Assembly (NCBI RefSeq): GCF_964204865.1
Contig: NC_135256.1
Location: forward strand, 23,560,001-23,624,000
DNA from: Styela clava
Lineage: Eukaryota
Direction of reading: 5' to 3'
Length of the DNA stretch: 64,000 bases
In this document: piece by piece, positions 22,453 to 59,700 of the stretch
Position numbering within the stretch: the stretch's first letter is position 1
How the letters are laid out: each line of letters begins with the position of its first letter
Translations under genes and position numbers: made by a program
The notes under the pieces: model-generated
What the model saw: only the letters and a program-made list of their open reading frames with translations
Told to the model about the DNA's origin: nothing
The model's database searches: none

Positions 22453-23929
22453 GGCAGAGCATATTAATTATCACAGGCCAGAATAACGCCTTAATATGCT
22501 CTCGTGGCTTTGGTAGTCTACCCAATGCCACTAGTTAGATATCTATATCGTATGTATATAGTCATGACATATAAATCATTCGAATACAGGGGTGGAGGTG
22601 AAGGGGAGCACGCCAGATTGGTACTGTAATGATTATTATGCTGTTTTCTGTTATTGTTGTGCGCACGTTCTTGATTACGTGATCTGTAGTTATGTGAATT
22701 TGTTTACGACAATACATTCGAGTCTCGGCTTCTGTTGGAGTAACGTGTCTTTTCTGTCCTCACTTGTACAGCACTAGACAGGAGAGTTTAGTTAATTAAT
22801 GGCGCTGAAAATGATATTAAAATGTTCCTTAAAAATTTGGTAACAAATATTGCCTTGTTCCCACTTCCAAAAGTTGCACGTTTTACGGAAAAGACGCTTT
22901 TACTACAAGAAATATGTGCTACGATCTGTCCTATATTCTCTACATTTTCGGCAATGAACAATGACTTCTGCATGACGTAACAATTGAATCGACTCAGCTG
23001 TTGGCGAGCGGATGAATATTAGTTATTACTGCTCGACCTTGCGTTGAGTTGGGCAGCCTTTCCATAGCCCTGTTTAGTTATTATTAGTTAAGTTATGCTA
23101 AGACGTTGTTGAAAAATTTATAAGTAAGTTATTAAACACTTGTAGATCCTTACCACGGACATGGGCCGTGAGACGAAGCCTTGAACACGACCAGAAAATG
23201 AGTTTCGTAGCGCACATCTGGTAACTAAATAAATTTTTCAGTTTTGTGTGAAAATGAACATACTGAACTCATTACAGCTTGTTCCACAATCCTGATGCAA
23301 AATTGAATATAAAAAGGTTCCCGGAAATTCAATACCCATAAGTTTACAACACATGTATGTATGTATGTATGTTTATTAGTCTCGTAGTAGTAAGCAGTAT
23401 AAAAAATTGAAAATATTAATATTGGAGAAGGGACGCATGCACAAGACCGTACCGGCCTAAAATACAAATGTGCGACATGCACATTACATAAGAACTATGC
23501 AATTCGAAATCAGACTTCCTCAGTCAATCATGATTTATTAGGTAGATTAAGAAAAATATGGCATACATGTAACCAACAACAAAAAATACTTTAATTGTGT
23601 GACAAGAGTCGCGAGTGACTTCGAAAGCAGCGACACCAACAATGCTGATTCACATTAGCGAATAAATTTTATTTAATAACCACAAGCAATTTACAACAAG
23701 AACAGCATAAAAAGCTACATCCATTTTATAGAAGCTATCAAACGTATTTATTTTTTAGCAATGAAGTCACAAATTAACATCGTGAGCACGAAAACACAAA
23801 TAAATCAGTTATTTCTCACTTAGAAATTTACCGGAAAAGTCAAGAAAATTAAATGAATGTACAGTATGTACATAACATATTGAACAGAAATATTACAAGT
23901 AGTCTTTTTTTAGTTTATGTGGTTATGAC

Positions 23930-28280: not shown

Positions 28281-30799
28281 CAGGGATGTCCAACCTGCGG
28301 CCCGTGGGCCGCATTGCGGCCCACTTAATGTTTGGATGCGGCCCACTAACGAATCATTAAAAAATTTTTTTTTAGCAAATTTATGAAGTAATGAGCACGA
28401 GAGTCTTCATGTAATTTAGTCAAAATATATTTATTGTAATTTAGTCAAAAAATACTTTATATTTAATAAATAAAATAATTGTAGCGACCAAATTGAAACT
28501 CCCGTATGTATTTTTTCTCGCGCTCTGGTGCGCCGCCACCAGCTACTCGCCATGCCGTTCGCAAGTCTTTGTTCTCGACAGTGTTGTTTTGGCTGTGGCG
28601 GTGTGCAGACTATATCTCTCAAAAGTAAGTGCTTAATCATTTAAATTTTCTTTATTGTTGAAATAAATGCATTTTCAGTAAACTACAGCTCAGTACACCT
28701 ATTAATGGTTAATTTCTTTTTCAGAGAACTATAATCTTAAGTAATGAAAATTTTATATTTATATGGCCATGGAATCTATTACTAAAAAAAGGAAAATAGC
28801 AGAAGAAAAGAGGAAATTTAATATCCAATGGACGGAAAAATATTTTGTGACCGAGTTATTTGGCAATATAACATGTCTTATATGTAATGATAAGATTAGC
28901 GTATGCAAGGAATACAATGTCAGACGTCATTATGTTTCGAAACATGAGTCAGAATATCAGACATTTAATGAAGAAAGAAGAAAAACGAAAATTGAAGAAT
29001 TGACAAAGGCAATTAGCTCACAACAAGCTAATCTTCAAAAACATATTGTTAAAAGTGGAACATGTACAAAAGTTAGTTACCTTATAGCTGAGAAATTAGC
29101 TAAGAAAGGAAAACCTCTTATTGATGGAGAATTAATAAAAGAATGCATTGTTATTGCTTTTAATGAGTACTGTCCAGACAAGGTGAATTTAGTAAAGGAA
29201 GCATGTCTATCACATCAGACAATTGATGACTTGGGTGATAATATTGAAGGCATACTGAAGGACAAATTATCTGCATGCGTTCTTTACAGTTTAGCGTTGG
29301 ATGAAAGTATTGACCAAAGTGATACTGCACAATTAGTTATTTTCATTAGAGGAATTGATGAAAATTTCAATATTATTGAAGAAATGTTGGACTTGTGTCA
29401 CATAAAGGGCACAACAAGAGGCAAGGACATATATGAGATTGTTAATTTGTCATTAGATAAATTCAATATTGATAGGAAAAACATTTATTCAATTACAACT
29501 GATGGTGCTCCTGCCCTGACTGGTCAACACAATGGTTTTATTAGTTTATTTAAAGAATCTGTTGATCATGAGATTCTCAGTTACCATTGCTTGATACATC
29601 AACAACAATTATGTGCTCAAAAGCTAAATATGAAACATTTGATGACTGATCTTGTCAAGGCTGTTAATTTCATCAGATCACGGGGTTTAAATCATCGCGA
29701 ATTTAAAGCATTCTTGGACGAAGTTGGCAGTGAATATGAAGACGTAGTATATTTCTCAAAAGTTAGATGGCTCAGTAAAGCAGCAACCTTAAAAAGATTT
29801 CAGTTATTGTTGCCTGAAATAAAAGTGTTCTTGGAAAAAAAGAAGCAAAATGTGGATTTTTTAGAAAATGAAGAATGGTTGAATGATTTATCTTTCTTTG
29901 TAGACATCACTGTATTAGTATTAGTATTAGCTGAATTAAGTATTAGCTGAACTTAATTTGCATTTACAAGGAAAGGACCAATTATGTTCCTCAATGTTTG
30001 AGCGAATAACTAGTTTCACAAAGAAATTGGAACTTTTTATAGCACAGCTAAAAGCTGGTAAAATTGTACACTTCCGTAGTCTATCTGAAAGAGAAAAAAA
30101 GTTTTCTGTAAACTATGAAAAATATACTAAATTATGTGAGGATTTGCTTGGAGAGTTTACGATTAGATTTTCTGACTTTAGAAAGATTGAAATTGAGTTA
30201 AAATTGTTTAGTGATCCATTTTCATTTGAATATGATAAAGCACCAGTGGAGTACCAACTTGAACTGATTGAGCTGCAAAGTCGGGAAGGTTTAAAAACTT
30301 TTCACAGGGAGAACACACTTCCTTCATTTTATAAGAAATTGCATTCTCTCAAAAATGAATTCAATCAAATTCTAAATTTATCCAGAAAATTATTATGTAT
30401 GTGGGGAAGTACATACTCTTGCGAGCAGTTTTTTTCAAGCATGAAAAACATTAAAACTGCGGAAAGAAACAGGTTGACTGATAGACATTTAGCAAACATT
30501 CTTAGAATTAAGAATGCATCCTTCGATGCAAATATTGAAAACATTATGGCTGGAAGACAAAGTCAAAAGTCTCATTGATTTAATATTGATTAATTAAATT
30601 TAATGTGTTTTTTATGTATAGCTACATATAAACATTACAATATTTACAACGTTGTAATAATGTAAATAAACTGTATTCACGTGGTTTTGTTTTATATTGT
30701 AATTTTTCCATTAAATTGTATTAAGAGGTGGTTTTGCGGCCCAGTTAAATATTTAAGTTTGCAATGCGGCCCATTGAATTAAAAGGTTGGACATCCCTG
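28281..30799 (+). mobile_element. Full-length hAT transposon (Charlie/SPIN/GTF2IRD2-type)
   Basis: TIR CAGGGATGTCCAACCT / AGGTTGGACATCCCTG with perfect 8-bp TSD GTTTAAGC. Confidence 0.93.
28763..30578 (+). pseudogene. hAT transposase split by one frameshift
   Basis: BED-like zinc finger (CLIC...RRHY..KH), SLALDES, TTDGAPAL, HCLIHQ, VRWLS and STYSCEQFFS motifs. The break at ~29915-29957 coincides with a local TATTAG/TTAGCTGAA duplication. Confidence 0.88.
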
Positions 30800-33701
30800 G
30801 TTTAAGCAAAAGAAGTGTCTTCGCGACTGAATAAACTGCATTGGTACGTCGTCGTAAATTTATTGCTGATTGGACGTTGTTACAGAATTGAAGTTTGAAA
30901 CCGATGCTAGGGAAAACATAGGCGCTAGAATAAAACAGAAAGGTGGATTTCGAACGTCAGGCTATATGCCATTTCGATATAAATAAATTAAAGAGTAAAA
31001 AAATATCTATTCTCATTGGCCCATATTTTTATTACTTTCTGAAAGACTTAAAGTCTCAAGCGATACATCGATCTGACACTGTATAATGGCATTTAGTCCT
31101 TCGGTGCAGCTTCATTTTGAAAATGTCAACTTGAAACATGTGACATCATGAGCAATCACATTGTCAAATGTCAACTATGACGGTGGGAATTGCTAAAACT
31201 TACTTAGTATGCATCTCAGCATAGGTATACTCATCGTCAGAGACAACGAAGTGCCCTATAAATATTAACGTGTTCGGTTAACATTACGTGTTAGATTAAC
31301 ATTCTCCGTTTAGGCCCGAAGTTAAAACTTTCCCTACCTGACATATAGTGAAAATATTGTTGTTGCAATGAGCGTGAGCAAAATTCTCATGAGACACTTT
31401 GTTATTTGAACGATGCTCCCCTAAGTTATATATACGCTTTGGGCAGACCAGGCCCAGTCTAGGAGTATAAGCGGTTGAGGGTATGGTGGGAACAATTAAC
31501 TTTAACAAATATCTTTTTTAATGCTTTATTTGGCTTTAGTAACCTCAGCATTTCATGTGAACTTGAGTTTGGAAACAATTAACAGCTCCAGGTGTTTGGG
31601 TTCTTAAAATACAAACATTTGAGCCATTTATTATTTATAAAGAATTTCAATTTTAGGCAAGCCATTAGTCAACTATAAATGACATTTTACTCATAGAATC
31701 CCTCCGTATATAGTGGGATAGCATACCACTTCAAGATATATTGCGGCAATAAAAAACGGTGGCAGAAATTCAAGCAAATTTATTTGGCAGTGCTGTTTTT
31801 TTTTTCAATTGGAGAGTATGCCGCAACACGCAACAGAGTTTGCCAGTGTATAAGAAGAGCAGAGAACATGGTTGAAATTTGCCAATGCTAGTTTTATGTT
31901 ACTGCCCTGATCAGTGACATATAAAATATTTTTCTGTTAAATACAGGAATGAAACTAGCTCTACAGTAAAACGAGATGGCAAAGTATCCTTGACCTCAAG
32001 CTTCCCAATTTGCACACCAAAAAAACCATCACCGAATTGTTCTCATAAGAGGCTGAACTCTAAAAAGGAGAAGTGGATATAATTCCTTTCGATGGAAGGT
32101 GGGGTGGTTGAAGTCAGTAAAACGCTGAACCGTAAAAGGAAGAAGTGGGTGAAATTTCTTCTGACGGCAGCTGGGTTGATTGAAGTCACTAAAAGGTTGG
32201 AAAGTAAGGAGTGAATAAATTTTTTTAAACGAATGGTAGGGTGGTTAAAGTTTCTAAAAGGCCGTTCAACCATCTCACTATTTTCGGGGAAAAGTTTCAT
32301 TCAATTCTTACTTTTAGTTTTCAGCGGTTTAGCGATACAGTACTCATTTATATTGGCCAAAACTAAATAGTGTGGGTATGCAATCTATCCGGTAGTATAC
32401 CGGTACCGCAGTCTTCACGTATTCACCCGAGGTGGGTAATATTTAATTTGATGACGTCATCGCACGCAAAAACGAAACCAATGAATCCCACAGAATTTCT
32501 TGTGATAAATAAAAGTATTAGAAATCATTTAAAGTTTTTCGGAAATTGGTCCGGTAGTTGACGAGAAAGTCGAATTTTTCACGATAAGAAGAAGGAAAGA
32601 ATGACTAATAAGAACAATAGCACAGTAACAAAAAAGTTCCTGTCCAATAAATGAAATACACAGCGTTGTGATCAAGGAATACTGACTTGGAATTTCTATC
32701 CGGTTAGGAAGCATCCGAAGTTATTGATTTGCCGACAATATGAGACGAAAAGTCTCTGACCTCCTTTTTCAGTTCCACGTATACTAATTACCCATATGAA
32801 TATTAATCAGTTGGTCTGTTTGAATTCTATGAGCTTTAGAATGAGTCATTTAAATTTTTGCAAGTACAATTGCCGGAGGGTGGTTTACAAAATCACATGC
32901 CGGTTAAGGCTTTCTCCGCCATCAAATCTGAAAACAAAAAAAAACAGCTAACTAAATCCATACCTGACATGGACTGGTAACTTGACGTCCGTGATTGGCC
33001 ATAAGATTGAGCTTTATTATTGCTTTTTTTCTCCCCGTGGGTAAATATGTAAATTCTGATTGCATAAAAAAAAAATATATTATACACAATTTTCCTGGGT
33101 AAGAGGCTATCCATGTCTCGAATGTGGCTTGTAGACTGATTTAGGCTTTTATACATAATAAGTATTACATTGTACTTGACCCAAAAAATTGTCTGATTAA
33201 AGTTTATTCTATGCAGCGAGATAATTCTCATGATAAATCTTATAATCATTTTATGTTCTTCTTGGCATCATTTCCACTTTTTCTTGGCAAAACCTCCTAT
33301 CTTATATACATTCTGTACGCTTTAAACCTTATCCAAGGTTTTGTTTGCTCTCCTGATTTCATAATCAGTTTTTATTTTTACCAATCATTTTATTGTTATG
33401 CTAATTATGGAGTCAAAATAAACTTATACTTATGAATATTGACTCGGAACACCCTTAATTAGTGATGCGTATACATATTTCCTGTTTGTGGAAAATTATG
33501 CGTGCCTCGCCCAATTTGTCTTACTTCTTGCTGCACTGAGTCCGCGTTTGGTCGCCTGTATTTTTAGCCAAAAGAATAGAGCATATAAGTTGATTTTCAG
33601 TTCGCGTTGACTGACCAGAGTCCGCGAACATATTTTGATAAGTTTTTATACACCGATATCTGTGCATTACCGCAGCTAACGTTACAGAACAAGGTGATAT
33701 C

Positions 33702-34799
33702 ATGGCGGAGGTTCATAGCTTTGGAAGCCAGCCGGTTTGCGTCCATGCATGGAATTCTGATCGCACTCAAATTGCTCTCAGTCCTAATAACAATGAAGTG
33801 GAAATATACGAAAAATGTGGTCGTCAGTGGAAGAAGATTCACACTCTGACTGAGCACACTGGTCGGGTTACTGGGATTGACTGGGCACCTAAAAGTCAAC
33901 GACTGGTAACATGCTCCAGTGATAGAAATGCTTACGTTTGGAGCTTGGATCAGAATCAATGGAAGCCTACACTTGTGATTCTCCGTATTAATCGTGCTGC
34001 TACATGTGTGAAATGGTCTCCTAATGAGGATAAATTTGCAGTAGGCAGTGGTGCCAGAGTGATTTCAGTTTGTTATTTCGAGCAAGATAATGATTGGTGG
34101 GTCAGCAAGCACATTAAAAAACCGATCCGATCCACAATTCTCAGTTTAGACTGGCATCCAAACAACATTCTAATTGCTGCAGGTTCATCCGATTTCAAGG
34201 CCAGAGTCTTTTCTGGTTATATAAAGGATATAGAACCAAAACCGTCTGCCACAAATTGGGGAAAGAAAATGACTTTTGGAAATGTGATGCAAGAGTTTTC
34301 GATGCCTTCGGATGGTTGGGTGCAAGGTGTAAAGTTCTCAGAATCTGGAGAAAAAATTGTTTTCGTGTCACAAGATAGTTCAATCGGGGTTGCATATGGT
34401 GGAGAAGAAGCTGTGACAATGAAGACATCGCATCTTCCATTTTGTGATTGTACTTGGCTAACAGAATATAGCATTGTTGCTGTTGGACATGATTGCAATC
34501 CAATGCTTTTCAGCACTGATGACAGATGCTCAGCTATAACATTCATAAATCGCCTGGACCAAGTGTCAAAGAATGCAGGCGCAAAGACCATGTCAGCTAT
34601 GGATAGATTCAAAATGATGGACAAGAAAGCCTCGACAGATACTCAGAGTGATGACATCAGGACGAAACACAAGAACAGCATTACGCAAGTTGTCAAATGT
34701 GGCCAGGGAAAGTTTTCAACCAGCGGTATGGATGGCAGTGTGATTATTTGGGATAATAAATCTCTGGAGTCTTCCATTTCTGGATTACGCATCAAGTAG
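33702..34799 (+). CDS. ARPC1: Actin-related protein 2/3 complex subunit 1 (p41, WD40), single exon, 365 aa
   Basis: HAWNSDRTQIALSPNNNEV, WKPTLVILRINRAAT, CYFEQDNDWWVSKHIKKPIRST and SLESSISGLRIK. Confidence 0.96.
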   Translation: MAEVHSFGSQPVCVHAWNSDRTQIALSPNNNEVEIYEKCGRQWKKIHTLTEHTGRVTGIDWAPKSQRLVTCSSDRNAYVWSLDQNQWKPTLVILRINRAATCVKWSPNEDKFAVGSGARVISVCYFEQDNDWWVSKHIKKPIRSTILSLDWHPNNILIAAGSSDFKARVFSGYIKDIEPKPSATNWGKKMTFGNVMQEFSMPSDGWVQGVKFSESGEKIVFVSQDSSIGVAYGGEEAVTMKTSHLPFCDCTWLTEYSIVAVGHDCNPMLFSTDDRCSAITFINRLDQVSKNAGAKTMSAMDRFKMMDKKASTDTQSDDIRTKHKNSITQVVKCGQGKFSTSGMDGSVIIWDNKSLESSISGLRIK

Positions 34800-35130
34800 A
34801 TGAAATTTATGTGATATCGGACTGCTATGACAATAAAATATATAATCAAGATATTTCTTTTTTAATTTCTAGTAGCCTATAAGAAAAAAACAATCAAGTG
34901 TAGTATTCGGTTAAGAAGACAAAGAGTGCTTTATTGTATGAATGTCACCATTTCCGTCATTTGAAATTTTGTAATTGGCTAATATATGAAAAACTTTCAT
35001 TCGAAATTTGCAGTATCATTATGTGTGAATTTTGAAACTTCGCTTGACAAGAATTTAGTTTTAATTGCAACTACTTTCTACAGTGATCCCAGTTGTGTGA
35101 TTGTATCCCAAAGATTTTTAGTTTAAGTAA

Positions 35131-35472
35131 AATATTTATGATTAAGACAATACCGGATTTAACAAGAAAATGTATGTTCGATAAATGATTAAATGAAATT
35201 CTCCTTAAGTTGTTAGTTTATTAAAGATTATTATTGAAGAAATAATATTTATGATTAAGACAATACCGGCTTTAACAAGAAAATGTATGTTCGATAAATG
35301 ATTAAATGAAATTCTCCTTAAGTTGTTAGTTTATTAAAGATTATTAATTATTGAAGAAATAATATTTATGATTAAGACAATACCGGCTTTAACAAGAAAA
35401 TGTATGTTCGATAAATGATTAAATGAAATTCTCCTTAAGTTGTTAGTTTATTAAAGATTATTATTGAAGAAA
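35131..35472. repeat. Three near-identical ~111-115 bp tandem copies downstream of ARPC1
   Basis: Unit AATATTTATGATTAAGACAATACCGG...TTATTGAAGAAAT starts at ~35131, ~35244 and ~35361. Confidence 0.9.
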
Positions 35473-36468
35473 TTATATACAATCATAGTTCAATATGTTA
35501 TCTATTACTGACAAAAGGAAAAGCCTAGGCTGAATGAGAAATGCTTCTATGTTAAGTTTTCTTAGCTTTCTTTTGGTGAGCAAGATTTTGTGTTTTGCGT
35601 TTCATCTGAATGAGTTATTCATTATGCGAGAATCAACAGTCAAGGGGTCCTACCGTCCTGTTGCTAAACACTTGTTGCCCATTTTTGACTGAACTAAAAA
35701 CTAGAGATGTATCGGTATCGGCCATGTATCGGTATCGGTTAGATTAAGACCGATATTTCCGATATATTTACCTTTTTGATATGGTCCAGAATGTTTTAAA
35801 AGATAAGTTGGAATACTACTTTTTTAGTTATTTTTTGTCTGGAGAGATCGTGAGCTATGAGCCATACATGTCCCCACCCCCACCAGAGAATAGGATTCAC
35901 GTGTTTTTAGCTATTTATCAGCTAAACTAGCTCAACTAATTTGGCTATTTTCGCTGTCAAATATTTACATTGACATATTCAATATTACATAGTAATTATG
36001 AAGAAATATATCAACACAGCACATAACAAAAAGCAACTATGGGCGCCCATTTTTAAACATACAATGAAATGGGGGTCCTTATTAACGGCACATGGACTTT
36101 TGGCACGGGTATAAATTCTGACTGTTTGTTGTCAAGTACGAGTGTCATTTAGTCCGTCGACATCGATAAACTAAATTCCGACACAATTATCCCTCTACGC
36201 AGGTGTTAATTTTAATTTTGTTTAACTTACACAATTTCTTTATAGATATATTGACATGACCGCCTAGTCCTAGACTGTCTCAAAATATATGATAGCAATT
36301 GTAAAATATTATAAAATAGTAAAGTAAAAAAACATCCTCCACGGTTATTGGTAGGCCTTCTTTTTGTTGGTGCTGATTGATATTCTTTTATGTTGGCTTT
36401 GACTTATTGCGTCGACGATAACGATTAGCAGCCACGAAATAAAATATTTGTAAAATGCTTTTAATTTG

Positions 36469-43302: not shown

Positions 43303-44928
43303 TAGGCTTGCACGTAATTGACAAAAATCAATTCCGTAATTACGGCCAAATCGATTACGTAATGACCCCGTAATTGCGATATTTTTTTCACACTTTTAAA
43401 CCTATCATAACAACCAATTTAATCCACTTCTATTCCGAATGGGACATCGACAGTTGGGACAGTTTGGTTTTCATATTTCCGCCAGTACTACACGCCGGCG
43501 ACATATGCTAAAGACAAATATCAAGGAGTGAATTCAAATTAATTTTATTCTGATTTTTATCTTTTGTGTTAGCTTTGATTTTCCTTTATCAACTTTATCA
43601 CCCAATTTTATGCGATCAATTTTATCATTACCAACACTGGTATGTGGTAATATATTTATGAAACGATAGTTGACTTTTTTAAAATCGTATTAACGTATTA
43701 ATACGAGTTTCGTATTACGAGTTTCGTATTAAATAAAAATTCCGGGTTTCTAATTTATAAATCAACGACGAGCGTATTCTCTCGTTTGATTATACTTGCC
43801 TCACGACGAAGACTTGTTATTGTACCGTTTTTTTTTACATTATCCGACTTCACTACCTAGTTAGCATTTTATAATAATTATTGATGCCGACTTATTGACG
43901 ATATTCCGATTACCATGCTTCATTTTACATTAAATCATTTCGCGGCCTAAATGTTATAACATTATTTGCGATAAATTTAGATTGAATATTAATTATTTGC
44001 GCATTATTTAAATACCGTACTTATGTGACATGCCTTCTCCGAAAATACAAAGTTATATCGCAAAACAATGCATTTGGTGGCATTTATTTTGCACTCACGA
44101 AAATATTAATTTACTTTTCTAACTCAAGTCGACAATCCTATCGGCTAAGATTGACACAAGTTTGGTCGAGTGCCGGTGGTATTTGAGTCGACGATAAATC
44201 AAAATAAGTTGCCGCATTTGGTAAAGACTTAAAGATATTGTAAAGACATATTTGGCCGAGATAGTGCGAGGCATTGTGAAAACAAGGCCAAGTACGGACA
44301 GATATATAAGGATAAAACCGGTAACAGAACATCAAGATTTTGTAATAGAAAATGGATCTCGCGCAGAATAAACATGGGAAATCCCGTCTTTTTGTTGTTT
44401 CTCTGCCGTCTGAATCGCTTTACCGATGCCGGAAAGACTAGGTTGCGTTGGTTCATTACGCAAGTTCTCTTCCGTCGTCATATTGCTGTTTGATAAGCGC
44501 GACATTAATTATCACGGCATTTACAAATAGACCATGTTTTATAAGTTGATCTCTTACATTCTTTAGTCATTTCACCCGAAGAAGTTGAAACCAGGTGTGT
44601 TGGCGTCCATCAGTCTCAACACAATTCTATCCCATATCTACGCTTGATATGTACATTTGCCATGCTAGATAAGTTGGTAATAGGTTAGTAAATGGCAACG
44701 CGTTATGCCTTCTCCATCTGCATAACAAGAGAGAAAAAAACGGCTGCGAATACCGGAACTCTAACTTCTTCTACTTATTAAACTTTAATTTTTTACAATC
44801 GACGGAATTGACTGCTCTAAAGAGAGCTCGTTGCAATCGCGAAAGCGCTCCACCAATACTTACGAATTTACGTAATTCGTAACTTCGCTTCCGTAATTCC
44901 GTAAATCCGTAAATTACCTGCAAGCCTA
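43303..44928. mobile_element. Non-autonomous hAT-type element, copy 2
   Basis: TAGGCTTGCACGTAATT...AATTACCTGCAAGCCTA with perfect 8-bp TSD ACTACAGT. Homologous to 1937-3365 plus a ~150-bp insert at ~43681-43828. Confidence 0.85.
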
Positions 44929-47900
44929 ACTACAGTCAACAGTATCTAGCCTGCAATGAAGTTATTATCAGTCTAACATTTCACTCAAGCCTTGAATGAT
45001 AACGTGGTCAGATCAGATGTGATGTATATCTCCCATGTTGCAAAACCTTATTTATGTTCGTCGTTATTCACGCATTGAAAAGCTTATAAAAAGCTTTCTT
45101 TTTTAACAGCTCGGCGAATGAATTTTCCCAAAAAAAGGTCACAGAGCGAGTCCTATGGTTTTTAATTTCGAATAATTGACCGATATTTGCGGCATTTATT
45201 GTATCTGATATTCACACAAATTAATTTAGAGAGAAGGTTTGTTCTTAAGTGGTAATACACCTTGAGAACCTCAATATATTTTACCAAATTATGTACTTCT
45301 GGAGCGAGATCCTAAATTAGCGTAGGGATCCTAGAGTTCAAATAATTAATTTCTTCTTATCTGTCACATCTAACCTCATTATGGCTCGGTGTAAGAAAAT
45401 ATAGGCTTTGGGTGATACAAAAGTGTAATTTGTATTTACATCATTACATTTCGTATTTAACTAACAACAATTACTGAAAAACGTCGATTCTTTATTGATG
45501 TTTATTGTCGTTAGAAATTGGGTGAAATGACGATATTTTCCCGAGTCTGCCGAAATCATGCTCATCGGATATGTAGGTCAAGTTTTGAGGCGTGTTCTTA
45601 TGAAACCCCTCCATCGCCACTAGACTGTTGCGGTCTTCAGCACTTTGGGTGACGTCAGTTGAATTTACACATACGGTATTATCGTTCGAAGCAGCTGTAA
45701 TTGTTTCCTCACGCACTGTTCCTCTTGAGGCTAAATGGAGAAAAGAGGCTGTATATTTTTATGTAAAAATTGCAAAGATATAGGGGAGAGGCTTTTGAAA
45801 ATAGTACAACTATGCCGATCTAAAGTCAACGAAATGTGTTGACAACAGTGCCTGAAAAAATAATCAAAACAAATTATTTGACATATATATTATTTCTCGG
45901 TTAATTCTTCAAACACACCATCTCTATGGTGTTATATACACATGAAGACAGTCAAAGACTAAACCTGTAATGGCCACGCCAGAGTGACTTCAAATGAGTT
46001 TCAGAAGTATACGTTATTGGCTTTCCCAAACAATTGCAACGGAACGAAAAATGCATCATATTTTAATTAGGCCATTTGGCAAATCTAACCTGATACGGAA
46101 TCAAGATCTTCAACCGTATAAAAGTTTTTCAATTCCCGTGTCCAAAGTTTTCTAACATCATTTCTTCGTACACAAAATAACAGGAACATGAAGAAGCCCT
46201 AAAATTAGGCAAAAGAATATGAGTATAAAATAGGATAATGAAGACAGATTGACAATACACACATTGATTTTAATAAAGTTACCTGCAACGCATTTGTTAC
46301 CGAGAATAACCAACCAAATATAGTGTTCACAGTTGGATCATCAGACAAAGTTAAAGGAATTGCAAACACCCATGATAAACCCAGCAGAACAGACACCGTG
46401 ATAGCTCGCGTAACGTAAGTGCGAATGTCCATCGGATTTGTTTGTGACCCAACCTACAATATGATAATATAACATGTTTGTTTCCGGATATTGTACAAAG
46501 ATACTAAAAGAAAAAATAATCCGATCTCAAACCTGTTTTCTTCCGCATGTAATTGACCATAAAATGACGATCGCCCCGGAAAAACTGACAACAAATGCTG
46601 CCGCTACCGGTATGAGAAATCCGAATATGAGGGAATAACTGTGGAGCCAACATAGCCGATCACTGACATAAGACGAAGGAAAGAAGTCCGACCCTGGAAG
46701 TGAGAGAAATTTACATCCGATTCCGAACGATTTAATTGAAAACGGGCCCGACTCCATATGGAATAGAATATCTTGGAGTTTCTCCCGGAAATATTGACTT
46801 CGATTATCACTATTGAAAATTCCCGACATCAAATATTTTATTGATATTCGAGCTCCAATATCAATAAAAAAGATGCCACAAATTCCGACTGCATAGCTTT
46901 CATATTTCTACAAGTTGCAACTGTTTCCGATTTGCATTACAGTTGTGGCTATGCAACAATTATAAATAAAATTGTCTCATATTACTATTCTTTTATTATA
47001 CCTGGTGTGATCCAACCGCCGTAGTTGGTAGTGTCATACCACGTGACTGAAATGACCATTGTTGTTATTACAATTACCGCCGATATAACGTACACTGTTG
47101 CTGACGAAAGCGTTATGCCTTCTCCATCTGCATAACAAGAGAGAAAAAAACGGCTGCGAATACCGGAACTCTAACTTCTTCTACTTATTAAACTTTTAAT
47201 TTTTTACAATCGACGGAATTGACTGCTCTAAAGAGAGCTCGTTGCAATCGCGAAAGCGCTCCACCAATACTTACGAATTTACGTAATTCGTAACTTCGCT
47301 TCCGTAACTCGAAATAATTCCGTAAATCCGTAAATTACCTGCAAGCCTAACTACAGTCAACAGTATCTAGCCTGCAATGAAGTTATTATCAGTCTAACAT
47401 TTCACTCAAGCCTTGAATGATAACGTGGTCAGATCAGATGTGATGTATATCTCCCATGTTGCAAAACCTTATTTATGTTCGTCGTTATTCACGCATTGAA
47501 AAGCTTATAAAAAGCTTTCTTTTTTAACAGCTCGGCGAATGAATTTTCCCAAAAAAAGGTCACAGAGCGAGTCCTATGGTTTTTAATTTCGAATAATTGA
47601 CCGATATTTGCGGCATTTATTGTATCTGATATTCACACAAATTAATTTAGAGAGAAGGTTTGTTCTAAAGTGGTAATACACCTTGAGAACCTCAATATAT
47701 TTTACCAAATTATGTACTTCTGGAGCGAGATCCTAAATTAGCGTAGGGATCCTAGAGTTCAAATAATTAATTTCTTCTTATCTGTCACATCTAACCTCAT
47801 TATGGCTCGGTGTAAGAAAATATAGGCTTTGGGTGATACAAAAGTGTAATTTGTATTTACATCATTACATTTCGTATTTAACTAACAACAATTACTGAAA

Positions 47901-50900
47901 AACGTCGATTCTTTATTGATGTTTATTGTCGTTAGAAATTGGGTGAAATGACGATATTTTCCCGAGTCTGCCGAAATCATGCTCATCGGATATGTAGGTC
48001 AAGTTTTGAGGCGTGTTCTTATGAAACCCCTCCATCGCCACTAGACTGTTGCGGTCTTCAGCACTTTGGGTGACGTCAGTTGAATTTACACATACGGTAT
48101 TATCGTTCGAAGCAGCTGTAATTGTTTCCTCACGCACTGTTCCTCTTGAGGCTAAATGGAGAAAAGAGGCTGTATATTTTTATGTAAAAATTGCAAAGAT
48201 ATAGGGGAGAGGCTTTTGAAAATAGTACAACTATGCCGATCTAAAGTCAACGAAATGTGTTGACAACAGTGCCTGAAAAAATAATCAAAACAAATTATTT
48301 GACATATATATTATTTCTCGGTTAATTCTTCAAACACACCATCTCTATGGTGTTATATACACATGAAGACAGTCAAAGACTAAACCTGTAATGGCCACGC
48401 CAGAGTGACTTCAAATGAGTTTCAGAAGTATACGTTATTGGCTTTCCCAAACAATTGCAACGGAACGAAAAATGCATCATATTTTAATTAGGCCATTTGG
48501 CAAATCTAACCTGATACGGAATCAAGATCTTCAACCGTAAAAAAGTTTTTCAATTCCCGTGTCCAAAGTTTTCTAACATCATTTCTTCGTACACAAAATA
48601 ACAGGAACATGAAGAAGCCCTAAAATTAGGCAAAAGAATATGAGTATAAAATAGGATAATGAAGACAGATTGACAATACACACATTGATTTTAATAAAGT
48701 TACCTGCAACGCATTTGTTACCGAGAATAACCAACCAAATATAGTGTTCACAGTTGGATCATCAGACAAAGTTAAAGGAATTGCAAACACCCATGATAAA
48801 CCCAGCAGAACAGACACGGTGATAGCTCGCGTAACGTAAGTGCGAATGTCCATCGGATTTGTTTGTGACCCAACCTACAATATGATAATATAACATGTTT
48901 GTTTCCGGATATTGTACAAAGATACTAAAAGAAAAAATAATCCGATCTCAAACCTGTTTTCTTCCGCATGTAATTGACCATAAAATGACGATCGCCCCGG
49001 AAAAACTGACAACAAATGCTGCCGCTACCGGTATGAGAAATCCGAATATGAGGGAATAACTGTGGAGCCAACATAGCCGATCACTGACATAAGACGAAGG
49101 AAAGAAGTCCGACCCTGGAAGTGAGAGAAATTTACATCCGATTCCGAACGATTTAATTGAAAACGGGCCCGACTCCATATGGAATAGAATATCTTGGAGT
49201 TTCTCCCGGAAATATTGACTTCGATTATCACTATTGAAAATTCCCGACATCAAATATTTTATTGATATTCGAGCTCCAATATCAATAAAAAAGATGCCAC
49301 AAATTCCGACTGCATAGCTTTCATATTTCTACAAGTTGCAACTGTTTCCGATTTGCATTACAGTTGTGGCTATGCAACAATTATAAATAAAATTGTCTCA
49401 TATTACTATTCTTTTATTATACCTGGTGTGATCCAACCGCCGTAGTTGGTAGTGTCATACCACGTGACTGAAATGACCATTGTTGTTATTACAATTACCG
49501 CCGATATAACGTACACTGTTGCTGACGAAAGCGTTATGCCTTCTCCATCTGCATAACAAGAGAGAAAAAAACGGCTGCGAATACCGGAACTCTAACTTCT
49601 TCTACTTATTAAACTTTTAATTTTTTACAATCGACGGAATTGACTGCTCTAAAGAGAGCTCGTTGCAATCGCGAAAGCGCTCCACCAATACTTACGAATT
49701 TACGTAATTCGTAACTTCGCTTCCGTAACTCGAAATAATTCCGTAAATCCGTAAATTACCTGCAAGCCTAACTACAGTCAACAGTATCTAGCCTGCAATG
49801 AAGTTATTATCAGTCTAACATTTCACTCAAGCCTTGAATGATAACGTGGTCAGATCAGATGTGATGTATATCTCCCATGTTGCAAAACCTTATTTATGTT
49901 CGTCGTTATTCACGCATTGAAAAGCTTATAAAAAGCTTTCTTTTTTAACAGCTCGGCGAATGAATTTTCCCAAAAAAAGGTCACAGAGCGAGTCCTATGG
50001 TTTTTAATTTCGAATAATTGACCGATATATGCGGCATTTATTGTATCTGATATTCACACAAATTAATTTAGAGAGAAGGTTTGTTCTAAAGTGGTAATAC
50101 ACCTTGAGAACCTCAATATATTTTACCAAATTATGTACTTCTGGAGCGAGATCCTAAATTAGCGTAGGGATCCTAGAGTTCAAATAATTAATTTCTTCTT
50201 ATCTGTCACATCTAACCTCATTATGGCTCGGTGTAAGAAAATATAGGCTTTGGGTGATACAAAAGTGTAATTTGTATTTACATCATTACATTTCGTATTT
50301 AACTAACAACAATTACTGAAAAACGTCGATTCTTTATTGATGTTTATTGTCGTTAGAAATTGGGTGAAATGACGATATTTTCCCGAGTCTGCCGAAATCA
50401 TGCTCATCGGATATGTAGGTCAAGTTTTGAGGCGTGTTCTTATGAAACCCCTCCATCGCCACTAGACTGTTGCGGTCTTCAGCACTTTGGGTGACGTCAG
50501 TTGAATTTACACATACGGTATTATCGTTCGAAGCAGCTGTAATTGTTTCCTCACGCACTGTTCCTCTTGAGGCTAAATGGAGAAAAGAGGCTGTATATTT
50601 TTATGTAAAAATTGCAAAGATATAGGGGAGAGGCTTTTGAAAATAGTACAACTATGCCGATCTAAAGTCAACGAAATGTGTTGACAACAGTGCCTGAAAA
50701 AATAATCAAAACAAATTATTTGACATATATATTATTTCTCGGTTAATTCTTCAAACACACCATCTCTATGGTGTTATATACACATGAAGACAGTCAAAGA
50801 CTAAACCTGTAATGGCCACGCCAGAGTGACTTCAAATGAGTTTCAGAAGTATACGTTATTGGCTTTCCCAAACAATTGCAACGGAACGAAAAATGCATCA

Positions 50901-53900
50901 TATTTTAATTAGGCCATTTGGCAAATCTAACCTGATACGGAATCAAGATCTTCAACCGTAAAAAAGTTTTTCAATTCCCGTGTCCAAAGTTTTCTAACAT
51001 CATTTCTTCGTACACAAAATAACAGGAACATGAAGAAGCCCTAAAATTAGGCAAAAGAATATGAGTATAAAATAGGATAATGAAGACAGATTGACAATAC
51101 ACACATTGATTTTAATAAAGTTACCTGCAACGCATTTGTTACCGAGAATAACCAACCAAATATAGTGTTCACAGTTGGATCATCAGACAAAGTTAAAGGA
51201 ATTGCAAACACCCATGATAAACCCAGCAGAACAGACACCGTGATAGCTCGCGTAACGTAAGTGCGAATGTCCATCGGATTTGTTTGTGACCCAACCTACA
51301 ATATGATAATATAACATGTTTGTTTCCGGATATTGTACAAAGATACTAAAAGAAAAAATAATCCGATCTCAAACCTGTTTTCTTCCGCATGTAATTGACC
51401 ATAAAATGACGATCGCCCCGGAAAAACTGACAACAAATGCTGCCGCTACCGGTATGAGAAATCCGAATATGAGGGAATAACTGTGGAGCCAACATAGCCG
51501 ATCACTGACATAAGACGAAGGAAAGAAGTCCGACCCTGGAAGTGAGAGAAATTTACATCCGATTCCGAACGATTTAATTGAAAACGGGCCCGACTCCATA
51601 TGGAATAGAATATCTTGGAGTTTCTCCCGGAAATATTGACTTCGATTATCACTATTGAAAATTCCCGACATCAAATATTTTATTGATATTCGAGCTCCAA
51701 TATCAATAAAAAAGATGCCACAAATTCCGACTGCATAGCTTTCATATTTCTACAAGTTGCAACTGTTTCCGATTTGCATTACAGTTGTGGCTATGCAACA
51801 ATTATAAATAAAATTGTCTCATATTACTATTCTTTTATTATACCTGGTGTGATCCAACCGCCGTAGTTGGTAGTGTCATACCACGTGACTGAAATGACCA
51901 TTGTTGTTATTACAATTACCGCCGATATAACGTACACTGTTGCTGACGAAAGCGTTATGCCTTCTCCATCTGCATAACAAGAGAGAAAAAAACGGCTGCG
52001 AATACCGGAACTCTAACTTCTTCTACTTATTAAACTTTTAATTTTTTACAATCGACGGAATTGACTGCTCTAAAGAGAGCTCGTTGCAATCGCGAAAGCG
52101 CTCCACCAATACTTACGAATTTACGTAATTCGTAACTTCGCTTCCGTAACTCGAAATAATTCCGTAAATCCGTAAATTACCTGCAAGCCTAACTACAGTC
52201 AACAGTATCTAGCCTGCAATGAAGTTATTATCAGTCTAACATTTCACTCAAGCCTTGAATGATAACGTGGTCAGATCAGATGTGATGTATATCTCCCATG
52301 TTGCAAAACCTTATTTATGTTCGTCGTTATTCACGCATTGAAAAGCTTATAAAAAGCTTTCTTTTTTAACAGCTCGGCGAATGAATTTTCCCAAAAAAAG
52401 GTCACAGAGCGAGTCCTATGGTTTTTAATTTCGAATAATTGACCGATATTTGCGGCATTTATTGTATCTGATATTCACACAAATTAATTTAGAGAGAAGG
52501 TTTGTTCTAAAGTGGTAATACACCTTGAGAACCTCAATATATTTTACCAAATTATGTACTTCTGGAGCGAGATCCTAAATTAGCGTAGGGATCCTAGAGT
52601 TCAAATAATTAATTTCTTCTTATCTGTCACATCTAACCTCATTATGGCTCGGTGTAAGAAAATATAGGCTTTGGGTGATACAAAAGTGTAATTTGTATTT
52701 ACATCATTACATTTCGTATTTAACTAACAACAATTACTGAAAAACGTCGATTCTTTATTGATGTTTATTGTCGTTAGAAATTGGGTGAAATGACGATATT
52801 TTCCCGAGTCTGCCGAAATCATGCTCATCGGATATGTAGGTCAAGTTTTGAGGCGTGTTCTTATGAAACCCCTCCATCGCCACTAGACTGTTGCGGTCTT
52901 CAGCACTTTGGGTGACGTCAGTTGAATTTACACATACGGTATTATCGTTCGAAGCAGCTGTAATTGTTTCCTCACGCACTGTTCCTCTTGAGGCTAAATG
53001 GAGAAAAGAGGCTGTATATTTTTATGTAAAAATTGCAAAGATATAGGGGAGAGGCTTTTGAAAATAGTACAACTATGCCGATCTAAAGTCAACGAAATGT
53101 GTTGACAACAGTGCCTGAAAAAATAATCAAAACAAATTATTTGACATATATATTATTTCTCGGTTAATTCTTCAAACACACCATCTCTATGGTGTTATAT
53201 ACACATGAAGACAGTCAAAGACTAAACCTGTAATGGCCACGCCAGAGTGACTTCAAATGAGTTTCAGAAGTATACGTTATTGGCTTTCCCAAACAATTGC
53301 AACGGAACGAAAAATGCATCATATTTTAATTAGGCCATTTGGCAAATCTAACCTGATACGGAATCAAGATCTTCAACCGTAAAAAAGTTTTTCAATTCCC
53401 GTGTCCAAAGTTTTCTAACATCATTTCTTCGTACACAAAATAACAGGAACATGAAGAAGCCCTAAAATTAGGCAAAAGAATATGAGTATAAAATAGGATA
53501 ATGAAGACAGATTGACAATACACACATTGATTTTAATAAAGTTACCTGCAACGCATTTGTTACCGAGAATAACCAACCAAATATAGTGTTCACAGTTGGA
53601 TCATCAGACAAAGTTAAAGGAATTGCAAACACCCATGATAAACCCAGCAGAACAGACACGGTGATAGCTCGCGTAACGTAAGTGCGAATGTCCATCGGAT
53701 TTGTTTGTGACCCAACCTACAATATGATAATATAACATGTTTGTTTCCGGATATTGTACAAAGATACTAAAAGAAAAAATAATCCGATCTCAAACCTGTT
53801 TTCTTCCGCATGTAATTGACCATAAAATGACGATCGCCCCGGAAAAACTGACAACAAATGCTGCCGCTACCGGTATGAGAAATCCGAATATGAGGGAATA

Positions 53901-56787
53901 ACTGTGGAGCCAACATAGCCGATCACTGACATAAGACGAAGGAAAGAAGTCCGACCCTGGAAGTGAGAGAAATTTACATCCGATTCCGAACGATTTAATT
54001 GAAAACGGGCCCGACTCCATATGGAATAGAATATCTTGGAGTTTCTCCCGGAAATATTGACTTCGATTATCACTATTGGAAATTCCCGACATCAAATATT
54101 TTATTGATATTCGAGCTCCAATATCAATAAAAAAGATGCCACAAATTCCGACTGCATAGCTTTCATATTTCTACAAGTTGCAACTGTTTCCGATTTGCAT
54201 TACAGTTGTGGCTATGCAACAATTATAAATAAAATTGTCTCATATTACTATTCTTTTATTATACCTGGTGTGATCCAACCGCCGTAGTTGGTAGTGTCAT
54301 ACCACGTGACTGAAATGACCATTGTTGTTATTACAATTACCGCCGATATAACGTACACTGTTGCTGACGAAAGCGTTATGCCTTCTCCATCTGCATAACA
54401 AGAGAGAAAAAAACGGCTGCGAATACCGGAACTCTAACTTCTTCTACTTATTAAACTTTTAATTTTTTACAATCGACGGAATTGACTGCTCTAAAGAGAG
54501 CTCGTTGCAATCGCGAAAGCGCTCCACCAATACTTACGAATTTACGTAATTCGTAACTTCGCTTCCGTAACTCGAAATAATTCCGTAAATCCGTAAATTA
54601 CCTGCAAGCCTAACTACAGTCAACAGTATCTAGCCTGCAATGAAGTTATTATCAGTCTAACATTTCACTCAAGCCTTGAATGATAACGTGGTCAGATCAG
54701 ATGTGATGTATATCTCCCATGTTGCAAAACCTTATTTATGTTCGTCGTTATTCACGCATTGAAAAGCTTATAAAAAGCTTTCTTTTTTAACAGCTCGGCG
54801 AATGAATTTTCCCAAAAAAAGGTCACAGAGCGAGTCCTATGGTTTTTAATTTCGAATAATTGACCGATATTTGCGGCATTTATTGTATCTGATATTCACA
54901 CAAATTAATTTAGAGAGAAGGTTTGTTCTAAAGTGGTAATACACCTTGAGAACCTCAATATATTTTACCAAATTATGTACTTCTGGAGCGAGATCCTAAA
55001 TTAGCGTAGGGATCCTAGAGTTCAAATAATTAATTTCTTCTTATCTGTCACATCTAACCTCATTATGGCTCGGTGTAAGAAAATATAGGCTTTGGGTGAT
55101 ACAAAAGTGTAATTTGTATTTACATCATTACATTTCGTATTTAACTAACAACAATTACTGAAAAACGTCGATTCTTTATTGATGTTTATTGTCGTTAGAA
55201 ATTGGGTGAAATGACGATATTTTCCCGAGTCTGCCGAAATCATGCTCATCGGATATGTAGGTCAAGTTTTGAGGCGTGTTCTTATGAAACCCCTCCATCG
55301 CCACTAGACTGTTGCGGTCTTCAGCACTTTGGGTGACGTCAGTTGAATTTACACATACGGTATTATCGTTCGAAGCAGCTGTAATTGTTTCCTCACGCAC
55401 TGTTCCTCTTGAGGCTAAATGGAGAAAAGAGGCTGTATATTTTTATGTAAAAATTGCAAAGATATAGGGGAGAGGCTTTTGAAAATAGTACAACTATGCC
55501 GATCTAAAGTCAACGAAATGTGTTGACAACAGTGCCTGAAAAAATAATCAAAACAAATTATTTGACATATATATTATTTCTCGGTTAATTCTTCAAACAC
55601 ACCATCTCTATGGTGTTATATACACATGAAGACAGTCAAAGACTAAACCTGTAATGGCCACGCCAGAGTGACTTCAAATGAGTTTCAGAAGTATACGTTA
55701 TTGGCTTTCCCAAACAATTGCAACGGAACGAAAAATGCATCATATTTTAATTAGGCCATTTGGCAAATCTAACCTGATACGGAATCAAGATCTTCAACCG
55801 TAAAAAAGTTTTTCAATTCCCGTGTCCAAAGTTTTCTAACATCATTTCTTCGTACACAAAATAACAGGAACATGAAGAAGCCCTAAAATTAGGCAAAAGA
55901 ATATGAGTATAAAATAGGATAATGAAGACAGATTGACAATACACACATTGATTTTAATAAAGTTACCTGCAACGCATTTGTTACCGAGAATAACCAACCA
56001 AATATAGTGTTCACAGTTGGATCATCAGACAAAGTTAAAGGAATTGCAAACACCCATGATAAACCCAGCAGAACAGACACCGTGATAGCTCGCGTAACGT
56101 AAGTGCGAATGTCCATCGGATTTGTTTGTGACCCAACCTACAATATGATAATATAACATGTTTGTTTCCGGATATTGTACAAAGATACTAAAAGAAAAAA
56201 TAATCCGATCTCAAACCTGTTTTCTTCCGCATGTAATTGACCATAAAATGACGATCGCCCCGGAAAAACTCACAACAAATGCTGCCGCTACCGGTATGAG
56301 AAATCCGAATATGAGGGAATAACTGTGGAGCCAACATAGCCGATCACTGACATAAGACGAAGGAAAGAAGTCCGACCCTGGAAGTGAGAGAAATTTACAT
56401 CCGATTCCGAACGATTTAATTGAAAACGGGCCCGACTCCATATGGAATAGAATATCTTGGAGTTTCTCCCGGAAATATTGACTTCGATTATCACTATTGA
56501 AAATTCCCGACATCAAATATTTTATTGATATTCGAGCTCCAATATCAATAAAAAAGATGCCACAAATTCCGACTGCATAGCTTTCATATTTCTACAAGTT
56601 GCAACTGTTTCCGATTTGCATTACAGTTGTGGCTATGCAACAATTATAAATAAAATTGTCTCATATTACTATTCTTTTATTATACCTGGTGTGATCCAAC
56701 CGCCGTAGTTGGTAGTGTCATACCACGTGACTGAAATGACCATTGTTGTTATTACAATTACCGCCGATATAACGTACACTGTTGCTG
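44700..56787. repeat. Five-copy tandem segmental amplification (unit ~2421 bp) of hAT tip plus adhesion GPCR 3' end
   Basis: Identical ORF sets recur every 2421 bp (45492, 47913, 50334, 52755, 55176). Junction GTTGCTG-ACGAAA-GCGTTATG at ~47104, 49525, 51946 and 54367. Confidence 0.95.
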
Positions 56788-59700
56788 CAGCTTTTGTTAC
56801 ATAGTGTGATATCGCTTTAGAAAATACGGACACCAATTTCCTGAAAAGCAACATGGGACGATGTATTCCGTAATATCGATTTAAATATTTCGATTCCCAA
56901 TCTCATAATATATATATATATATAGGCCATGAATTGGGCATGGCCAAATAGGTCGGGCTAGGCAACGGGACTAAAAGACACTTAGTATTTTTGAGCAGTT
57001 AATTGGAGATTCAGAATTGATTAATTGAAGCGGCCTGGTGGAATTATTGTTTTTATCATCATCATTATCTTTTTACTAACTGGATTATTTGATTACTTAT
57101 TTAATGCCTGATATACAGTTTTACACGGAATATGAATTTTCATTGCTTACTTATTTGGATGTTGTCAGGAGCTAATTACGTAGGTTGTTTCGTCTTTTTT
57201 TTACGCAGAACTAGGGTTTCCAAATAAATGAGCTCAAACGAAACAAGCTATACTACATGCGCCAAATTTGGCTTAATGTCTAGACTCTAGACCGAGAAAT
57301 TGGTATGCATCAGATGTTCCTTCCCTTGGGTATACGAAAACAAATCAGAAAATATAGCTTCATGTTATGGGTATTGTTGAAAATTGCGTACTTATCCAAA
57401 TATTTTAAAATTCTGTATTTACTTTTCGCTTTCGATTTTTTTCGATCGACACTTTTATTTTATGCTTTTAATTCCGAATCGATAACATATAGTCAAATAA
57501 GCTATTCGTAAATATGTTGTTACAGATTTCGTAGAAACACCAAGAATATCTTTTTGTAATATTTACACGTAAAATAAACTCTTTGACGCTAAATGGCCCA
57601 TTTTTGCTTACTTATACATAGTGATGCATTCTACCACCATCCACCCCCATGAACTCAATAGAAAGAAGTGTAGAAGAGCAGCAGATGCAATGCAGAGACC
57701 GTAGGCTTTTGGACGTTCAGTAGACGAAAGCAAAATAATGTATGACAACATAAGACAAAAACCCAAATGGGAATGAATCTTCACAATCTCAGATTTTCTT
57801 AATATTCTGAAAAATCATAATGCATGTTTTGAATTAATCATCCACCGTACTGAAGTTTTGTTTGGAGGAAATACTTGAAACTACTTGAGAGTGGATAGAT
57901 CCTCAAAATAGTAAGGGAGAGAAAGAAATATCATTTGTCAACCAACAATACAATCATCGTACATTAAAAAAAAATTAGGACAATAATTCTCCGAGAAGAA
58001 TCAATCTTTTACACGCATTTACATTTTGACTGAAGATAACCTAAGAAAGTCAACATCATAAATTAATAGTTACGTGGATAATATCATGCTCAGTAAAATG
58101 ATGAAAATGTGTTCACTTACGGAAAGTAAAGATGGATTAGCAGCATAAACAAAAGTCCAAATATTGAAATTAGGCAACACACTTTTCCCACGATTTCAAG
58201 CGAATACTCCTGCATCTTCTCATGCGTTTGCTGTTCACATATAAAATATTTAAAGATTTTTCCACAGTGAAAACTATTTTTGAGGGTAATTTATGCGTGA
58301 CCGTGGTTCTAATTATGAAGAATCGTGAATCATGACGTGCAAAGGGAACACTTACTACAAACATGCTTTCTACTGCGTAAGGGCTTCGATAATGTGAAAG
58401 AACAGCATACGTACCACTAGAACTGCAAAATTTGTCATGTGATTGCACGTGCAATTTGGGGGATCTGATCCAGGAATTGTTTCACATCCATCCGATAACC
58501 ATTCTCCAGTCTTCTCATTCAAGAACGAACATTTAAAATATTGCCTTACTTTAGCGTTCTGAATAATTATCAAAACGTGATTACAAAGAAAGAATGTTTT
58601 GGACTAAATTTTAACGTATAAACGTATGTCCCGCGTACATATCGAATTTACGCCAATACTCGATATGTACCAAAATCGTATGCGCTGTAAGTAACATGTA
58701 ACGGAAGTATGTTTCAAAACTGTGTATATCCGATAGATCCACATCCATTATTACAGCCATACTAAGTAATAGCAGACAAGGGTCGTGGTTTTTACACGCA
58801 CATTCCCTTTGGGATAAGCTCTGTAGAAATAACTACTCGCGGATCATTGTCGTCCTCAGGCCTAGGGTGTAGGCGTGGATAGATAGACACAACATGATTT
58901 CCATCAGTGGCTTGTATCGTCAGTATTGTAGCCACCGCAATTACCCATGTATCATATTGAACACACAGCCGAAATTTGTAGAAAATATTTATGTTATTTT
59001 GATATAATAAAAGATAAAATCTAATTGATGCTTTTCCATTTTTTTGTCAATCATTTTTTTCGATCTCTTGGATGAAACTATTAAATCCTTGTATACAAAG
59101 CCATATTATTTTTTAAACAATTAACCAAACGGTACGGCCAGTTGTTTTGTGTATGGTGGTGTATATTGTACTCGGGATACATACGATGTTCATATGATAT
59201 ATGAGTTACTTAGTAGGACATAAGTTACTTGCGGTATACGACGCATCCGTCCAATTGACACTATTTAGGGACATTGAGAGATAGTGAAGCACTTGTACGC
59301 GAGCGCTCCATTTGTCAATCTCAAAACTAAAAGTACTAACACAGGGTTATAAGCAGTGTTCCTTCTAAGAAAATTTCACACTGCGCAAATGTTGTTTTGA
59401 ATGAGCAAGACTATTTTAAGGCTGAACAGAATACTAATTTTATGTGAAATATTACAATGGTATTATATATTATCAGGATGCGAACAAAGCACACATTTTA
59501 CTCAAATAGCTTATTCTTGCTTTCGTGCTTTTCCAATGTTCATACATTTTTCAATGTTTAATTCTGAAACCAAGCGACAATTATCTAGTTCTAAAGTACA
59601 ATACTCTATGTACAATATCAACTTTCTTGTTGTTGAAATATCATTGCTTTCATCTACAATCAGGGTATGAAATTTTGTTTGTCTCTTGCAAGATGTCATG

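Follow-up and report, generated by a model that had tools for sequence, protein, structure and literature searches.

The window analysed here comprises 64,000 nucleotides (nt) of Styela clava DNA (contig NC_135256.1 of RefSeq assembly GCF_964204865.1, positions 23,560,001 to 23,624,000; all positions below are those of the window) and contains, on the minus strand, the gene LOC120328258, which encodes a predicted adhesion G protein-coupled receptor (GPCR). The 3′ part of this gene, coding for the transmembrane helices (TM) 4 to 7, is repeated head to tail behind the complete gene copy. At each junction between two repeat units, termed seam in the following, the tip of a miniature inverted-repeat transposable element (MITE) of the hAT type places a candidate splice acceptor in frame with a truncated TM4 exon. 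An earlier note, made from the sequence alone, had therefore proposed a modular adhesion GPCR with 7+4n helices. The main transcript in the sequencing runs examined is the ordinary seven-helix form. We consider it most probable (about 0.72) that the array is a young partial duplication, with the extra units likely being passengers and the seam exon being spliced rarely or never.

The receptor gene and the array behind it

By every feature tested, the gene is assigned to the adhesion GPCRs. A named Styela clava protein agrees with its TM2-3 exon at 100%, and a genome search gave one 100% match. A record of 1,176 amino acids (P0003) maps exactly over 20 introns of contig C8. P0003 contains EGF and EGF_CA matches in a long N-terminus, a GPS motif directly ahead of TM1 (PF01825, residues 758-796, E 5.6e-11) and a secretin-type 7TM domain (PF00002, residues 807-1064, E 9.3e-22). 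The best solved relative is ADGRG6 (E 1.1e-35, residues 519-1084), with which H-M-T and the segment after it can be aligned. The GPS motif, the 7tm_2 domain and the long EGF-bearing N-terminus are common to the Styela gene and the ADGRG group (ADGRG6/GPR126, ADGRG2/GPR64). In contrast to this group, the Styela gene belongs to a Styela expansion located mostly on contig C13, does not contain the GWG motif of TM4 and has its 3′ third present five times.

Self-BLAST of the window showed that a unit of 2,421 bp occurs five times head to tail from 44697 to 56787, with identities of 99.4-99.8%, and a genome search found these five copies only. The breakpoint at 56787 falls within the native TM4 exon. 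Each unit therefore starts with the last 102 nt of this exon, followed by the TM5, TM6 and TM7 exons, the last exon, approximately 480 bp past the poly(A) site and 240 bp of the MITE tip; the fifth unit continues into a complete element of 1,626 bp. Among all five units there are only six substitutions and two indels, and only three of the changes are coding (two silent, one phenylalanine/tyrosine). Two substitutions and a 10-bp deletion are private to unit 5, whereas an extra A that most other MITE copies lack is shared by units 1-4. These differences point to a first duplication that was probably followed by the expansion of one daughter. Unit-specific substitutions at 56271, 53660/48818, 54079, 50029, 46119 and 45246 are usable for assigning reads to units. 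One substitution is confined to units 2 and 4, pointing to the duplication of a unit pair or to gene conversion.

That the array might prove unreal had been named in the earlier note as a way for its proposal to fail. Depth, a seam-crossing contig and the private differences between units all speak for a real array. In the DNA-like run X11 the unit contig has a depth of 114.3, about six times the 19.2 of a contig from the unique flank, and in X13 the corresponding depths are 2,857-3,632 and 310-613. This corresponds to approximately 10-11 units per diploid genome in X11 and 9-13 in X13, overall roughly 10-12, a rough figure that allows for heterozygous sites and does not distinguish 5+5 units from a longer array that the assembly has collapsed. 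Thus, either about five units are present on both haplotypes or the assembly undercounts them. An exact contig of 101 nt from run X10 spans the seam, with 36 and 65 letters flanking the joint between MITE and filler and 30 letters on the TM4 side of the filler. As the DNA-like runs may represent the source sample, they are a test of the assembly and not independent animals. The flank haplotypes differ by seven substitutions and four indels in 1.7 kb, which is more than the units differ among themselves. An older annotation of another haplotype contains two isoforms separated only by F1093Y, which equals the difference between units 1-4 and unit 5, along with three other residue differences to P0003. 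Judged from these isoforms, that haplotype probably also has at least two TM7 exons.

The MITE tip and the candidate seam exon

The MITE has inverted ends of approximately 16 bp and a longest stop-free stretch of 93 amino acids, and it encodes no transposase. An 8-bp target-site duplication is perfect in five of the eight elements of this family with both ends, including the intact copy that closes the array, and imperfect in the other three; one further locus has one end only. The element is filed as hAT on account of its target-site length and ends, no autonomous partner having been sought. Searching the genome with the MITE tip gave 604 first-look candidates. The AG at the seam is kept in all eight other aligned copies as well as in the intact element, and therefore this AG would predate the duplication and have come with the element.

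Further observations concern this MITE and other hAT-like sequences of the window. A C-to-G change in the inverted end, absent from the eight other aligned copies, gives rise to a splice donor at 54602 (9.2 bits); this donor, with equivalents in all five units, is located 210 nt ahead of the seam AG. A second copy of the MITE (1,429 bp, 1937-3365) exhibits an imperfect target-site duplication. Two remnants resembling hAT transposases, each in two frames, lie on the plus strand at 23903-25340 and 28748-30578, with a DUF4371 domain and a Spin-doc zinc finger plus hAT dimerisation domain as their domain matches. A duplication made by a transposase was considered and rejected, as the break is internal to the element, 240 bp from its end.

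At the first seam the MITE sequence ends at 54373, and after a filler of 6 nt the TM4 exon restarts at 54366, the equivalent of 56787. Approximately 130 bp further upstream, the MITE tip contains a second occurrence of an 8-mer made up of the last bases of the MITE piece and five bases of the filler; the filler may thus have been templated during a template switch. Four copies of the junction motif (54399, 51978, 49557 and 47136) are spaced 2,421 bp apart, and another is found at 44726 inside the intact MITE. The seam AG (54392-54391 in the first seam) opens an exon of 126 nt between AG and GT, which translates without a stop as GEGITLSSATVYVIS.... Such an AG with its stop-free exon was indeed present at all four positions given in the earlier note.

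The donors of TM7 (55774) and of TM4 are both phase 1. Splicing from TM7 to the seam on paper appends TM4-5-6-7 in frame, as had been predicted, and adds 189 amino acids and four hydrophobic peaks per unit. Starting from the TM1 exon, the native product has 380 amino acids and the products with one to four added modules have 569, 758, 947 and 1,136 amino acids, each with a single terminal stop. Forms with 11, 15, 19 and 23 TM helices are hence encodable as open frames. The proposed cytoplasmic-to-cytoplasmic join also keeps the topology according to the established 7TM architecture. The statement that the seam exon encodes essentially the whole TM4 holds for the hydropathy peak (2.30 versus 2.31 in the native exon), but not for the start of the helix: the seam deletes the YxxK that is present in all eight aligned homologues and leaves an acidic linker ahead of the helix. 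A second in-frame route avoids the seam by joining the TM7 donor to the native TM5 acceptor of the next unit (527 amino acids). This route would clash in topology, as the added helices would be inverted.

Splice sites were scored with matrices built from 83 introns of related receptor genes (five of 88 being held out) with 82 distinct acceptors and no branch-point term. The pyrimidine tract and AG which the earlier note had regarded as strong-looking are real, but with 8.9 bits the seam acceptor is only average on this matrix (52nd percentile of real acceptors). An AG at 55535, within the intron after TM7, scores much higher (12.6 bits, 91st percentile), and the RNA contigs splice across it. 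As this stronger AG is skipped, a good acceptor score does not show use. Its use would give a short tail ending in GTVVNTFR. Two donors are located between the stop codon and the seam, 55059 (8.2 bits) and 54602.

Transcripts and competing readings

Five RNA-like runs from three studies (X1, X2, X3, X5 and X9; nine of the thirteen runs listed were guessed to be RNA) were analysed. Their RNA nature is deduced from spliced joints and one poly(A) end, as none is on record as RNA. Contigs of all five runs join TM7 to the ordinary last exon (55774-55414, 359 nt skipped). The native start of TM4 is seen at the displayed loose end in four of the five runs, and in X3 a contig of 3,533 nt leaves the unit at the same base. 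One contig from X5 terminates at 55091 with 17 T that have no matching run of A in the genome, and thus marks a poly(A) site 700 bp before the seam AG. The position 55176, where the mRNAs had been supposed to end, is the stop codon. All five RNA contigs exhibit the phenylalanine allele. Among the RNA contigs listed, the splice check suggested in the earlier note showed the ordinary joint and neither a TM7-to-seam joint nor a crossing of the seam; this absence in contigs we do not count as evidence. According to a Poisson estimate from contig depths, an isoform of at least 20% would probably be visible and one of 5% would not, but as this estimate ignores graph cleaning and carrier status it was not relied on.

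The protein records fit with the ordinary transcript. In the protein cluster of the gene, each of the eight members has the ordinary tail at its end, and the seam peptide is absent from all of them. A search for this peptide among longer proteins returned the native protein only (one of four candidates), to which we attach little weight. The four extra units are annotated as separate fragments of 245 amino acids starting inside TM4, and these four "genes" are likely not genes. For a working modular receptor with 7+4n helices there was consequently no support, the ordinary route and tail being found in five of five runs and eight of eight cluster proteins.

The sequence of events that we favour is the following. 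A hAT-type MITE would have inserted approximately 480 bp behind the poly(A) site, and a template switch during replication or repair would have led from a point 240 bp into the MITE back to the TM4 exon, with the 6-nt filler, probably copied from the MITE tip, remaining at the joint. Unequal crossing-over may then have multiplied the unit. By chance, the MITE would have had an AG and a pyrimidine tract 18 nt before the break and in the frame of TM4. Since unit 1 retains a complete gene, including last exon and poly(A) site, the majority of transcripts would end 700 bp ahead of the first seam. RNA that reads through would be expected to retain the last exon with its stop codon, via the donors at 55059 or 54602, rather than to skip it.

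The fate of older helix exons in this receptor family was also examined. On C13, two paralogous genes are each followed, 65-75 nt past the stop codon, by older copies of the TM6 and TM7 exons. Translation of these decayed copies from the acceptors that they possess runs into a stop after 1 and 16 amino acids; one of the TM7 copies stops after 15 amino acids, and in the other the AG is missing from the corresponding position. With a likeness of about 85% to each other, the two relics predate the split of their host genes. As they are only about 73% like the exon of their hosts, they may also derive from a neighbouring gene that was deleted. In either case, helix exons left over behind the last exon have decayed in this family. 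A pattern hit at C13:11297188 was set aside because it is not a homologous TM7 acceptor. No second TM5-7 match was found among the 127 proteins compared.

Several observations weigh against a passenger role of the extra units. The acceptor of the true last exon scores only 4.5 bits (16th percentile) and is thus weaker than the seam AG, and the cleavage site has the variant AATACA as its nearest poly(A) signal, with an AATAAA approximately 85-95 nt upstream. Because of this weak acceptor and the variant signal, read-through with skipping of the last exon is plausible. Contigs drop rare variants, and the depths were 12-16. Four of the five RNA-like runs differ from the window at single-nucleotide polymorphisms, so that these animals may not carry the array. 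If the older isoform with the tyrosine of unit 5 came from RNA of the last unit, transcription would reach this unit, although an allele of unit 1 would explain the isoform equally well. All frames are intact in all five units, with too few changes for a selection test, and the array looks common rather than private. Finally, the in-frame seam is rarer than the chance of 1 in 3 given in the earlier note, which applies only once an acceptor is given. When 12,200 random breakpoints were simulated, an in-frame open exon with an acceptor within 100 nt resulted in 0.9% for an acceptor of median strength and in 4.8% for a weak one (0.4-4.8% depending on the threshold, and 0.4-0.9% for an acceptor as good as that of the seam). 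The coincidence is genuine, but this figure is post hoc and comes from a very large scan, in which events of 1-5% are expected often.

Of the alternatives, the one surviving best is that carriers of the array regularly use the seam exon in a minor or tissue-specific isoform. Its product, an 11-helix (rarely longer) protein, would combine an ordinary 7TM core with an additional TM4-7 half-bundle, which could take the place of TM4-7 of the core or dampen signalling. Split GPCR halves can reassemble. The frame and phases fit, the median-strength acceptor at the seam beats that of the last exon, the poly(A) signal is a variant, and the product, which ends in the normal last exon, would presumably escape nonsense-mediated decay. 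However, with the ordinary route in all five RNA-like runs, the skipping of the stronger AG at 55535 and the loss of the YxxK start of TM4, such an isoform appears improbable. That the MITE tip made the duplicated tail a stackable four-helix module, from which carriers make a minor or tissue-specific 11-helix GPCR and perhaps forms with 15, 19 or 23 helices, has in our view a slim chance, and we put the chance of the 11-helix form yielding a stable protein about equally low. If true, this would be a GPCR architecture being born, with the copy number setting the helix number.

It is also rather unlikely that the extra units are transcribed but not as helices, be it as a long 3′ untranslated region or decay substrate, as interchangeable 3′ ends or as three-helix fragments of 245 amino acids. 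The donors between stop codon and seam, the four annotated models and the older tyrosine isoform would fit with such transcripts. Yet no promoter was shown, the annotations probably stem from multi-mapped reads over identical exons, and all five contigs exhibit the phenylalanine allele. A selected array that encodes a modular 7+4n-helix receptor as its main product would match the low chance of an in-frame seam and the probable presence of the array on both haplotypes and on another annotated haplotype, but it is very hard to reconcile with a 7TM main transcript in three studies, near-identical units without specialisation and the decay of the older paralogue copies. An assembly artefact, to which the likeness of the units (>99.4%) and the lack of any single piece spanning the array could point, has a negligible chance given the depth ratios in X11 and X13, the exact X10 contig over the seam and the private differences between units.

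Mapped features and neighbouring elements

Table 1. Positions of the features discussed in the text, in window coordinates unless a contig is named.
Feature	Position	Strand	Details
GPS-motif exon	58415..58546	(-)	single copy; PF01825, E 1.2e-12
TM1 and TM2-3 exons	57612..58230 (TM1 58230-58121; TM2-3 57806-57612)	(-)	single copy; PF00002, E 9.6e-8
Native TM4 exon	56686..56840	(-)	phase 2 acceptor, phase 1 donor; RNA contigs carry the native 5′ part
Unit 1 exons TM5, TM6, TM7	56377-56217, 56137-55967, 55882-55774	(-)	CT..AC joints in RNA contigs
Unit 1 last exon	55091..55414	(-)	stop codon 55178-55176; poly(A) site 55091
Array units 1-5	56787-54367, 54366-51946, 51945-49525, 49524-47104, 47103-about 44700	(-)	from self-BLAST and unit differences
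MITE tip in unit 1	54373..54612	(-)	240 bp; holds GT donor 54602 (9.2 bits) and seam AG
Seam filler	54367..54372	(-)	6 nt
Seam exon candidate 1	54265..54390	(-)	126 nt, phase 1-1, open; 18 nt MITE, 6 nt filler, 102 nt TM4 exon
Seam exon candidate 2	51844..51969	(-)	no differences between seams
Seam exon candidate 3	49423..49548	(-)	same seam sequence
Seam exon candidate 4	47002..47127	(-)	same seam sequence
Full-length non-autonomous hAT-type element	43303..44928	(-)	1,626 bp; terminal inverted repeats, perfect 8-bp target-site duplication; closes the array
Decayed TM6-TM7 copies	C13:11296611-11297250 and 11311396-11312060		behind paralogous adhesion GPCR genes

Besides the receptor gene, the window contains two intronless frames which are possibly retrocopies. 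The first (342 amino acids, 9332-10360, minus strand; PF01869, E 4.9e-28) resembles, as we assume, N-acetylglucosamine kinase, and the second, a WD40 frame of 385 amino acids (33642-34799, plus strand), presumably resembles ARPC1 of the Arp2/3 complex. A retrotransposon with several overlapping frames is located at 17395-22804 on the plus strand, its RVT_1 match being below the curated cut-off. Its end repeats are split over 13220-13349, 17395-17465 and 22611-22804, which suggests nested insertions. Furthermore, an inverted repeat of 1.6 kb (61-1665 and 13350-14960, 90% alike) and a tandem array with a unit of 113-117 bp in approximately three copies (35110-35478) are present.

Comparison with known systems

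Partial-gene tandem duplications with a filler at the seam, which are expanded by unequal crossing-over, are an established class. The Styela array has in common with them the exonic breakpoint, the short filler with a nearby template, the near-identical head-to-tail units and the intact first copy. It differs in its other breakpoint, where a MITE tip contributes an acceptor in frame. The exonisation of transposons through cryptic acceptors is established as well, and here, too, a pyrimidine tract and an AG borne by the transposable element lie ahead of host coding sequence. In the Styela case, however, the element would add only six codons, and use of the seam exists on paper only.

With regard to the number of helices, ADGRG7/GPR128 is likewise an adhesion GPCR with more than seven helices: an eighth, N-terminal helix was shown in cells, and the receptor is the first such GPCR to the knowledge of the authors (PMC11039983). 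In contrast, the four additional helices of the Styela gene would be C-terminal and exist on paper only. In the literature covered, which included few subscription papers, the eight-helix ADGRG7 was the only precedent for extra GPCR helices, and nothing relevant was found on GPCRs with 11 or 14 helices or with duplicated exons.

On the favoured reading, the array is an ordinary young partial duplication, and it neatly illustrates the building of a tandem array by a MITE end together with a template switch and unequal crossing-over. If the seam exon were used, the gene would encode a natural GPCR with a repeated C-terminal half-bundle. As its use can be checked at little cost, the system is well suited to testing how new architectures of membrane proteins come about.

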